Shown one piece after another: positions 59,045 to 60,595 of a stretch of DNA of 64,000 nt. The first letter of the stretch is position 1; the number at the start of each line of letters is the position of its first letter. A model generated the notes under the pieces. That model was not told the origin of the DNA. It did no database searches and saw only the letters and a list, made by a program, of their open reading frames with translations. The translations under genes and the position numbers were made by a program. Location: contig CAWFVU010000009.1 of NCBI GenBank assembly GCA_963819375.1, positions 876,649-940,648 on the forward strand, written 5' to 3'. The stretch comes from an uncultured Pseudomonadota bacterium. Its GTDB lineage: Bacteria > Myxococcota_A > Polyangia > Fen-1088.

Positions 59045-60595
59045 ATGTCTTCTTTTCCGCGCACTCCACACTCAGGCCCCTCGCAGGGTGAGGTGGAGGA
59101 TCGTTTTCGCCTTCTGGTCGAGAGCGTCAAGGACTACGCGATTTTCATTCTCGACACCGGTGGCCACGTCGCGACCTGGAACCTGGGCGCCGAGCGCATC
59201 AAGGGGTACAAGGCCGACGAGATCATCGGCAAGCATTTCTCGATCTTCTATCCGCCAGAAGACATCGCGGCGGGCAAGACCCAGCGAGAGCTCGAGATTG
59301 CGACGCGTGAGGGCCGCTTCGAGGAGGAGGGCTGGCGCGTTCGCAAGGACGGCTCACGCATGTGGGCCAACGTGACTATCACCGCCCTACGCAATCCTGA
59401 CGGCTCGCTGGTCGGGTTCGCGAAGGTCACGCGCGACCTCACCGAGCGCCGACGAGCCGACGAAGAGACCCATCGCTTCCGCCTTCTGGTCGAAAGCGTC
59501 AAGGACTACGCTATTTTCATCCTCGATACGGGCGGGCACGTCGCGACCTGGAACCTGGGAGCCGAACGTATCAAGGGATACAAGGCCGACGAGATCATCG
59601 GCAAACACTTCTCGATCTTCTATCCACCCGAGGACGTCGCGGAGGGCAAGACCCAGCGAGAGCTCGAGATCGCGACGCGCGACGGTCGCTTCGAGGAGGA
59701 GGGCTGGCGCGTTCGCAAGGACGGCTCACGCATGTGGGCCAACGTCACCATCACCGCTCTACGCAATCCCAACGGCACGCTGTTCGGGTTCGCGAAGGTC
59801 ACGCGCGACCTTACCGAGCGCCGACAAGCCGAGGAGGCCCGACGCTCGCTGGCGGTCGAACGCGCGGAGCTCGCAGAGAGGGCCCGCGTTCAGGAATTCC
59901 AGGAGCGCTTCATCGCGATCTTGGGACACGATCTGCGTAATCCGCTGGCAGCGATCGACTATGGAGCGGGACTCTTGCAGCGGCGCGCTACCGATCCGGC
60001 GATGCGGCGAACTGTTGATCGGATGCGCACGAGCTCTGTGCGAATGTCGCGAATGATCGAGCAGATTCTCGATCTCACACGCGCGCGGCTCGGCGGCGGC
60101 CTCGAACTGAAGCGCACGCGCCTGAACATCGCAGAGATGCTCCCCCGCATCATCGACGAGCTGCGCGCGACGCATCCGTCGGCGACACTCGACGTCAGTT
60201 GTTCCTCCTTGGAGGGTGACTGGGACGAAGATCGGCTCGAGCAGGTTTTCTCAAATATCATCGGCAACGCGATCGTGTACGGCGAGCCTTTCAAGCCCAT
60301 CAGAGTAGAAGGCCGCAGCGAAGGCGACCTGGTGCTGGTCGTCGTGCACAACTACGGCAAACCGATCCCGGAAGATCTTCAAGCGAACCTGTTCGATCCC
60401 TTCCGGCGAGGAGAGCGAGACAGCCAGTCATCTAAGACCGAGGGCCTCGGGCTCGGACTCTACATTTCGAATGAAGTCGTGAAAGCGCACGGTGGCCGGA
60501 TCGAAGTGAAGTCGAACCTGGAGGACGGGACGACGTTCCGTGTGATCCTGCCTTTGAGCGGCGATCGAGCGTCGTCTGAAAGGACGAGCGACTGA
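59045..60595 (+). CDS. sensor histidine kinase with two tandem near-identical PAS domains
   Basis: PAS unit repeated twice, then H-box LGHDLRNPLAAI and HATPase G-boxes. Confidence 0.8.
   Translation: MSSFPRTPHSGPSQGEVEDRFRLLVESVKDYAIFILDTGGHVATWNLGAERIKGYKADEIIGKHFSIFYPPEDIAAGKTQRELEIATREGRFEEEGWRVRKDGSRMWANVTITALRNPDGSLVGFAKVTRDLTERRRADEETHRFRLLVESVKDYAIFILDTGGHVATWNLGAERIKGYKADEIIGKHFSIFYPPEDVAEGKTQRELEIATRDGRFEEEGWRVRKDGSRMWANVTITALRNPNGTLFGFAKVTRDLTERRQAEEARRSLAVERAELAERARVQEFQERFIAILGHDLRNPLAAIDYGAGLLQRRATDPAMRRTVDRMRTSSVRMSRMIEQILDLTRARLGGGLELKRTRLNIAEMLPRIIDELRATHPSATLDVSCSSLEGDWDEDRLEQVFSNIIGNAIVYGEPFKPIRVEGRSEGDLVLVVVHNYGKPIPEDLQANLFDPFRRGERDSQSSKTEGLGLGLYISNEVVKAHGGRIEVKSNLEDGTTFRVILPLSGDRASSERTSD
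59093..59854 (+). repeat. 381-bp in-frame tandem duplication (2 units, about 93% identical) inside PAS kinase gene
   Basis: Unit 1 is 59093-59473 and unit 2 is 59474-59854. Both encode RFRLLVESVKDYAIFILDTGGHVATWNLGAERIKGYKADEIIGKHFSIFYPPED...GFAKVTRDLTERR. Confidence 0.75.

Follow-up and report, generated by a model that had tools for sequence, protein, structure and literature searches.

The window considered here is a stretch of 64,000 nucleotides (nt) from an uncultured bacterium assigned by GTDB to Myxococcota_A, Polyangia, Fen-1088 (GenBank assembly GCA_963819375.1, contig CAWFVU010000009.1, positions 876,649–940,648 of the forward strand), and all coordinates below are those of the window. 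Our subject is a sensor histidine kinase gene at 59045–60595 on the forward strand. According to the list of open reading frames (ORFs), Pfam, and an AlphaFold model, it encodes a protein of 516 amino acids with the architecture leader–PAS–PAS–HisKA–HATPase_c, in which the two PAS modules are near-identical serial copies of one unit.

The kinase gene and its domains

The ATG at 59045 aligns with the N-termini of the related proteins (MSS.PRT...), and hence the TTG start at 58964 given in the ORF list is too early. No transmembrane segment is predicted in the 516-residue kinase, and an exact look-up of its sequence found no record.

Both PAS units pass the gathering scores of curated profiles for membership in the PAS domain. 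Each of four Pfam profiles matches two stretches, namely, PAS_9 with 110 bits (cut-off 27), PAS_4 with 95.7 bits (23.1), PAS with 93.1 bits (22.6), and PAS_3 with 64.9 bits (25.6), as does the generic NCBIfam profile TIGR00229, PAS S-box, with 166.5 bits. In the AlphaFold model, built on 68 relatives, the mean predicted local distance difference test score (pLDDT) is 83.7, with about 90 in both PAS folds. The elements of each modeled unit follow in the order of one helix, two strands, four short helices, and three strands, which is that of the PAS fold, and each unit is closed by the motif RDLTERR, which contains the D-x-T of PAS domains.

The HisKA dimerization and phospho-acceptor domain lies at 59900–60088 on the forward strand (residues 286–348; 56.9 bits, cut-off 26.9) and contains the H-box ILGHDLRNP with the phospho-acceptor His295, whose codon occupies 59927–59929; this histidine is invariant among the 68 relatives. 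The ATP-binding domain HATPase_c follows at 60224–60559 on the same strand (residues 394–505; 88.2 bits, cut-off 26.4, E 6e-25), and its Asn404, Asn408, and GLGLGL stretch (467–472) are invariant in the same alignment. The combination of an H-box histidine domain and a GHKL ATP-binding domain is that of a HisKA-type kinase. With the whole protein as the query, none of the named kinase equivalogs (AtoS, NifL, FixL, PhoR, EspA/EspC, and others) scores above its NCBIfam cut-off; the best one, AtoS, reaches 172 bits vs. a cut-off of 646.

The type of the PAS modules was considered separately. The LOV subfamily was rejected, as the flavin-adduct cysteine motif GXNCRFLQ is absent and both units read IGKHFSIFYPPED (GKHFSIFY) at this place; LOV chains match the PAS core only at E 1e-6 to 1e-4 in a sequence search of PDB. 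The heme-binding PAS domains of the FixL/DosP type were rejected as well, because the equivalent F-alpha helix (residues 78–89 and 202–213; AAGKTQRELEIATRE) contains no histidine; HMMER pairs the DosP stretch ...RHNREG... with ktqrel of the window protein. The PDB sequence search yielded distant PAS matches only, none of them with an informative ligand.

The repeated PAS unit

Tandem Repeats Finder reports a single array at 59100–59832, with a period of 372 nt, 2.0 copies, 90% matches, and 0% indels. According to a direct offset scan, the identity is 90.8% at offset 372 and 25–33% at all other in-frame offsets, and thus the similarity of the units is far above the chance level. The similarity in this register extends from about 59100 to about 59465.

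Unit 1 occupies 59099–59470 on the forward strand (124 codons, residues 19–142), including the C-terminal helical linker with DLTERR; it is defined by the 372-nt repeat, by the matches to PAS_9, PAS_4, PAS, and PAS_3, and by the model, in which a PAS fold at residues 31–131 is followed by a 19-residue helix at 133–151. Unit 2 occupies 59471–59842 on the forward strand (124 codons, residues 143–266), and is defined by the same repeat and by a modeled PAS fold at residues 155–255, followed by a long helix at 257–314 that runs into the phospho-acceptor helix with His295.

The units differ at 41 out of 372 nt, that is, they are 89.0% identical at the DNA level (90.9% in the core, codons 2–118), and 113 out of 124 amino acids (91%) are the same, 11 being different; tblastn gives 93.4% protein identity over 121 amino acids. 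Their longest exact in-register match, 59 nt at 59315–59373 and 59687–59745 (forward strand), is the most likely substrate for recombination between the units.

A previous reading of this DNA without database searches, below referred to as the sequence-only reading, had described an in-frame tandem duplication of a complete PAS domain in a sensor kinase gene, which is borne out by the repeat analysis, with the copies arranged head to tail, and by the two Pfam PAS stretches, and had quoted the peptide RFRLLVESVKDYAIFILDTGGHVATWNLGAERIKGYKADEIIGKHF...VTRDLTERR, which is indeed present in both units. Its measurements need correction. The unit had been given as 381 bp, or 127 codons, at which offset the identity is only 29%, instead of 372 bp, or 124 codons; the boundaries had been set at 59093–59473 and 59474–59854 instead of the codon-aligned ones above; and the DNA identity had been estimated at about 93%, a value that agrees with the tblastn figure for the protein and not with the measured 89.0%.

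Closest relatives and age of the two-unit layout

The five full-length relatives nearest to the window protein (P0006, P0007, P0010, P0011, P0012) are encoded on contigs of 22–158 kb in three metagenome assemblies (ERZ26871208, ERZ25039594, ERZ25039590), from which their genes were retrieved. The proteins are 88–91% identical to the window protein overall and 83–88% identical in the kinase domain. All five contain two units with identical junctions, and in all of them, as in the window protein, unit position 105 is occupied by Val in the first unit and by Phe in the second one. The genomic neighborhoods of the six relatives considered differ; what can be aligned is the last ~90–220 bp upstream of the gene in L001 and L002, and the downstream REC (receiver) gene of L001. 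As the neighborhoods are not syntenic, orthology is not provable by synteny.

The differences between the two units are distributed as expected under purifying selection. Third codon positions account for 31 out of 41 substitutions, and the Nei–Gojobori estimates of synonymous (dS) and non-synonymous (dN) divergence are 0.42 and 0.045, respectively, yielding dN/dS of 0.11; both units are kept under purifying selection. Of the 113 codons at which the units agree in the amino acid, 27 are different, whereas at saturation 60 ± 5 differing codons are expected from the local codon usage, or 49 from the codon usage of the PAS family. This expectation was calibrated by independent codon draws, since the genome is GC-rich (65% overall; GC content at third codon positions, GC3, is 0.76 in reference genes). 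The copies have thus covered about half of the distance to synonymous saturation, being clearly related by DNA descent but not young.

The same scale can be applied to the relatives. The proportion of synonymous differences (pS) between the units within the window gene is 0.30, while between the same units of the window gene and of its five closest relatives it is 0.29–0.35. For the PAS core, within-gene dS ranges from 0.28 to 0.63 across the six close genes, with 0.40 for the window gene, and dS between genes amounts to 0.37 when first units are compared, 0.46 for second ones, and 0.50 across positions. Since the window units are as diverged as orthologous units across the relatives, the two-unit state is older than the split of these lineages. 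The duplication, or the last homogenization, probably took place not long before the radiation of the close relatives.

Unit number in the family

Among the best 120 full-length matches, two units, the commonest form in this family, are found in 69 proteins, three in 46, four in two, five in three, and one in a single protein; the source names of these matches point to Myxococcota (Polyangia, Myxococcaceae, Archangium, Stigmatella). In a set with one genome per GTDB species, two units are present at 71 out of 80 loci, distributed over Myxococcota, Gemmatimonadota, Acidobacteriota, Burkholderiales, Bacteroidota, Planctomycetota, Verrucomicrobiota, and others; the nearest protein in this set, 73% identical, comes from the metagenome-assembled genome (MAG) MFD05841.bin.2.175. 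The identity of units within one protein varies from 49% to 96% in the family. At the upper end of this range are L058, from a Chthoniobacterales MAG, with a young pair of units (95% amino acid identity, pS 0.11), and P0052, where two of the three units are 96% identical; both would illustrate a recent duplication or conversion better than the window gene does.

When the kinase half alone was used as the query, many one-unit proteins of 380–396 amino acids were retrieved, of which eleven are encoded on contigs of 36 kb–1.1 Mb. Proteins with one, two, and three units interleave on the neighbor-joining tree of kinase domains, which requires at least 33 changes of the unit number among 153 complete proteins. 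For 15 out of 71 one-unit proteins, there is a multi-unit neighbor with at least 80% kinase identity, and for four of them, with at least 90%; for one-unit proteins from long contigs, the kinase identity to the sampled multi-unit proteins does not exceed 72%.

The clearest one-unit case close to the window gene is P0024, a protein of 392 amino acids, that is, 516 minus 124, with 90% kinase identity to the window protein, in which the leader and the kinase are kept and a single unit is left. At 17 sites separating first and second units in the close set, its unit reads 1111211 and then 2222222222, being copy-1-like at nt 1–243 (except for nt 166) and copy-2-like at nt 288–372. This pattern implies a crossover between nt 243 and nt 288 of the unit, an interval that overlaps the 59-nt longest exact match. 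The single chimeric unit is the result of either a deletion or an assembly collapse. Other one-unit proteins for which there is a near-identical two-unit kinase are also mosaics of an N-terminal part of unit 1 and a C-terminal part of unit 2, although less clean.

Probable concerted evolution of the units

In order to compare the units by position, pairs of the 69 two-unit proteins were grouped by identity of their kinase domains, and only the PAS core (unit positions 2–118) was considered. For pairs with kinase identity of 0.9–1.0, the mean identity is 0.926 between units at the same position, 0.839 in cross comparisons, and 0.841 within proteins, and the within-protein value exceeds the same-position one in 0% of pairs. 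At 0.8–0.9, the respective values are 0.892, 0.853, and 0.860, with 10% of pairs. At 0.65–0.70, the same-position and cross identities are 0.777 and 0.775, the within-protein identity is 0.820, and it is the higher one in 90% of pairs; at 0.60–0.65, the values are 0.776, 0.775, and 0.837, with 96%. Finally, below 0.60, the same-position identity is 0.785–0.788, the cross identity 0.786–0.788, and the within-protein identity 0.853–0.860, with 97–100% of pairs. A similar pattern is seen in the cross-phylum set, and at synonymous sites 92% of pairs show a lower pS within a gene than between orthologs.

Other features of the alignment of the 69 proteins show the same tendency. The only columns specific for the unit position are 1, 123, and 124, which belong to the junctions, and none are in the PAS core, while at variable columns the two units of one protein vary in concert. 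For instance, column 61, occupied by Thr or Cys, differs between the units in only 16% of proteins, although the family is split 42/25 and 34/34. For 102 out of 138 units, the nearest neighbor is the unit at the same position in another protein, and in 11 out of 69 proteins the two units are sisters.

This family pattern is the signature of slow homogenization or unit turnover, and it does not agree with one old duplication and nothing but divergence thereafter. The process is slow, positional orthology being kept down to about 80% kinase identity and lost below about 70%.

Genomic neighborhood

The gene at 61389–61949 on the forward strand, 0.8 kb downstream of the kinase gene, encodes a stand-alone receiver (REC) protein (Pfam Response_reg). 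Its counterpart downstream of the closest ortholog, P0006 (L001), is a REC gene with 70% identity, and a REC gene is also found directly downstream in the more distant relatives L007 and L008. From this recurring arrangement, the REC protein is a candidate cognate response regulator of the kinase.

Directly upstream, there are a gene for a hybrid kinase PAS–HisKA–HATPase_c–REC at 54537–56099 on the reverse strand and a gene for a GAF–GAF–HisKA–HATPase_c kinase at 56356–58170 on the forward strand, and this part of the window is a cluster of signaling genes. PAS domains of the upstream kinases are 28–33% identical to the duplicated unit. The flanks of the kinase gene, 58171–59044 (~870 bp) and 60596–61388 (~790 bp), are unusually long and contain no convincing ORF; no Rfam match at the gathering threshold was found in 56000–64000.

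Within the downstream flank, a 55-amino-acid ORF (60817–60984, forward strand) is 64% identical over 50 amino acids to the N-terminus of a 234-amino-acid ORF located 2 kb away (62702–63406, reverse strand), the shared motif being KN.HAV.LGRLGG.KGG.ARA.AL.A.RR.EIA. The short ORF, scanned as 60817–60945, has no Pfam match and may represent a small gene that was duplicated or has degenerated. Two small overlapping ORFs at 62154–62727 on the reverse strand adjoin the 234-amino-acid ORF, and one of them, 62446–62727, matches DUF6036, a nucleotidyltransferase family of unknown function; together, they look like a small cassette of the toxin–antitoxin or defense type. A 142-amino-acid ORF at 63396–63824 on the forward strand matches only the C-terminal dimerization domain of pyridine nucleotide-disulfide oxidoreductases and is possibly a remnant of a truncated gene.

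Comparison with known systems

The top Foldseek matches to the model are NifL (9qq6), the Brucella LOV-PAS-HK (6ph4), DosP (9cmf and other entries), and MmoS (3ewk), as well as WalK and the chimeric LOV kinases SB2F1 and YF1. At the sequence level, matches of DosP, LOV, and MmoS to the PAS core have E values from 1e-5 to 1e-7; the identity to solved chains is low, with 3lyx as the best match (E 9e-9) and Foldseek identities of 13–27%. Similarly to NifL, the Brucella LOV-PAS-HK, the hPAS–PAS pair of DosP, and PAS-A/PAS-B of MmoS, the window protein has serial PAS domains with helical linkers leading to the effector or to the dimerization and histidine phosphotransfer (DHp) helix. However, the PAS domains of these four proteins have strongly diverged in sequence and role, e.g., binding flavin adenine dinucleotide (FAD) or heme vs. 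acting as transmitters, whereas the modules of the window protein are 91% identical and have the same conserved residues, unlike the solved tandem-PAS pairs.

A further likeness is to uncharacterized proteins of Myxococcota (Polyangia, Myxococcaceae) and other soil phyla annotated as "PAS domain S-box" or "PAS domain-containing sensor histidine kinase," which have the same PAS subtype, the PAS(n)–HisKA–HATPase_c architecture, a unit spacing of 123–124 amino acids, and 65–91% full-length identity, with no essential difference from the window protein. The window gene is thus an ordinary multi-PAS sensor kinase gene, and such kinases are commonplace.

Concerted evolution is known for intragenic repeats in surface proteins and for tandem gene arrays. 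As in the general case of tandem repeats, units within one gene of this family are more alike than positional counterparts in distant relatives, the unit number is variable, and chimeric units mark unequal exchange. Our full-text literature search found no paper on concerted evolution or turnover of the unit number for PAS modules of histidine kinases, and the words "duplication" and "tandem" are not used in a paper on PAS evolution (PMC10468136).

Discussion

We consider it fairly probable that the best explanation overall is a soluble two-module PAS kinase of inherited layout, with slow concerted evolution between its units. According to this explanation, the gene encodes a soluble, cytoplasmic two-component sensor histidine kinase with the input region formed by two serial copies of one PAS module, each with its helical DLTERR linker, and the second linker continues directly into the helix bearing His295. 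By analogy with known PAS kinases such as YF1, NifL, and DosP, the kinase would act as a dimer, in which an intracellular cue at the PAS modules would be relayed via the coiled-coil linkers and would control autophosphorylation of His295; the phosphate would then be passed to a receiver protein, probably the product of 61389–61949. As both modules keep the same family-invariant residues, they probably sense, and respond to, the same cue. The layout was inherited from the common ancestor with the closest relatives, and the similarity of the modules would have two causes, namely, very strong constraint on this PAS subtype and slow re-homogenization by recombination between the units, that is, by unequal exchange and/or gene conversion. 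Such recombination would lead to the observed unit numbers from one to five and to the loss of positional orthology between distant relatives.

Several observations weigh against this explanation. In the six close genes, the same-position core identity exceeds the cross-position one by only 1.7% nt, and although this assignment of positions ranks first among 32 labelings, the runner-up reaches 1.4%; given such a weak positional signal, the main grounds for dating the two-unit state before the divergence are the common junctions, the fixed Val/Phe site, and parsimony. A GENECONV-style permutation test on 13 units from seven genes (78 pairs) detected no conversion tracts in within-gene pairs (p = 0.27–0.91; 0.33 for the window gene), and the smallest p, 0.003, belongs to a between-gene pair and fails the correction for multiple testing over the 78 pairs; the window gene thus bears no direct trace of a recent conversion. 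Codon bias shared within a genome lowers pS, as in Corallococcus L010, where pS is 0.23 and pN (the non-synonymous counterpart) is 0.17, and thus the lower synonymous divergence within genes than between them is partly confounded. At the protein level, co-adaptive selection for two matching modules could partially mimic the concerted pattern.

The kinase-domain tree is unbootstrapped, and all 15 one-unit proteins with close multi-unit neighbors are on contigs of at most 18.7 kb; they may thus be assembly collapses, inflating the count, and the apparent recent unit losses may be either real deletions or short-read collapses. The preference of one-unit close relatives for short contigs is a trend that does not reach significance (Mann–Whitney p = 0.09). 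Furthermore, the two protein samples are oppositely biased in the unit number: the kinase-only search missed known two-unit relatives of 83–88% identity and returned mostly one-unit proteins, the selection of candidates seemingly being tied to target length or word density, and hence the ratio of one-unit to two-unit proteins in the sample is no population estimate.

The alternative that fares best, and that we nonetheless find rather unlikely, is one ancient duplication followed by pure divergence, with the likeness of the units maintained by purifying selection and codon bias and with no recombination between them. This model predicts that units at the same position should be the closest at every depth, which indeed holds for close relatives, where positional orthology is retained; however, below 0.7 kinase identity same-position and cross comparisons give equal values, and the within-protein identity is higher in 90–100% of pairs. 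The invariance or near-invariance of most core positions in the 69 proteins and the low dN/dS (0.11) fit strong selection without recombination, as does the lack of detected conversion tracts, whereas the co-variation of columns such as column 61, the sister units in 11 out of 69 proteins, the unit numbers from one to five, and the chimeric single units do not. Codon bias, which depresses within-genome pS, also is a part of this model, but the synonymous divergence in the window gene is 4–7 standard deviations below saturation at the respective codon usage.

It is very unlikely that the pair arose by a recent, lineage-specific tandem duplication of a single-PAS gene and has barely diverged since, as the sequence-only reading had it. 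Comparisons with close relatives largely refute this possibility: dS of about 0.4 equals the divergence of orthologous units of the five nearest relatives, the layout, the junctions, and Val105/Phe105 are common to all five, and it is implausible that the same duplication arose separately in six lineages. The 89% nt and 91% amino acid identity without indels and the synonymous divergence below saturation (27 differing codons vs. 49–60 expected) speak for a recent event, and young events do exist in the family, e.g., in L058 and P0052. As for the suggestion that the duplication is possibly adaptive, its only support is the purifying selection that keeps both copies, and nothing indicates positive selection.

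Repeated independent duplications from single-PAS ancestors, that is, birth and death of units instead of homogenization of a stable two-unit gene, appear highly improbable to us. One-unit relatives are abundant and real, as shown by the eleven on contigs of 36 kb–1.1 Mb, and on the kinase tree they are scattered among two-unit proteins; still, those on long contigs have at most 72% kinase identity to sampled multi-unit proteins, and the two-unit state is shared within the clade of the window gene. Besides, this scenario is not cleanly separable from the preferred one, as gain and loss of units by unequal exchange is itself a route of concerted evolution.

Finally, a spurious second copy introduced by the assembly, e.g., two strain alleles joined head to tail in what is truly a one-PAS gene, has a negligible probability: in its favor is the one-unit version P0024, 90% identical and located on a short Joint Genome Institute (JGI) contig, Ga0604936_0060029 of JGI 3300064046, but the frame is intact, the differences are concentrated at third positions (31 out of 41) with dN/dS of 0.11 as expected under purifying selection, the position-specific linker differences are reproduced in independent assemblies that share the architecture, and copies with 11% divergence and no exact shared run above 59 nt are easily distinguished. 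Some of the contigs in question, 34–158 kb long, have names with _np1212, which we take to mean nanopore-polished, this being our interpretation of the name and not a result of a tool. As far as can be judged from the assembled sequences, the two-unit gene is assembled correctly. The earlier warning that such repeats recombine and may collapse is partly supported by the chimeric unit of P0024 at 90% identity and by the unit numbers from one to five, while a spurious duplication in the window gene is not supported.

With the inherited two-module kinase as the preferred explanation, the annotation "PAS–PAS sensor histidine kinase" is sufficient for the window gene. The case also demonstrates that similarity of tandem domains is by itself no sign of recency without a check of synonymous sites and orthologs, as 89% identity here hides dS of about 0.4, and that domain counts from short-read metagenomic contigs are unreliable, since one-unit chimeric versions found there are possibly collapsed repeats. 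More tentatively, and with considerable doubt, the number of near-identical PAS modules, from one to five, might be seen as a labile dial, with units added, removed, and homogenized by unequal recombination, perhaps tuning the gain or cooperativity of the response to one signal; if so, the window gene might, no less tentatively, be a two-unit snapshot of this process. The family pattern provides a testable example of concerted evolution in a signaling domain and is relevant to the evolution of two-component systems.

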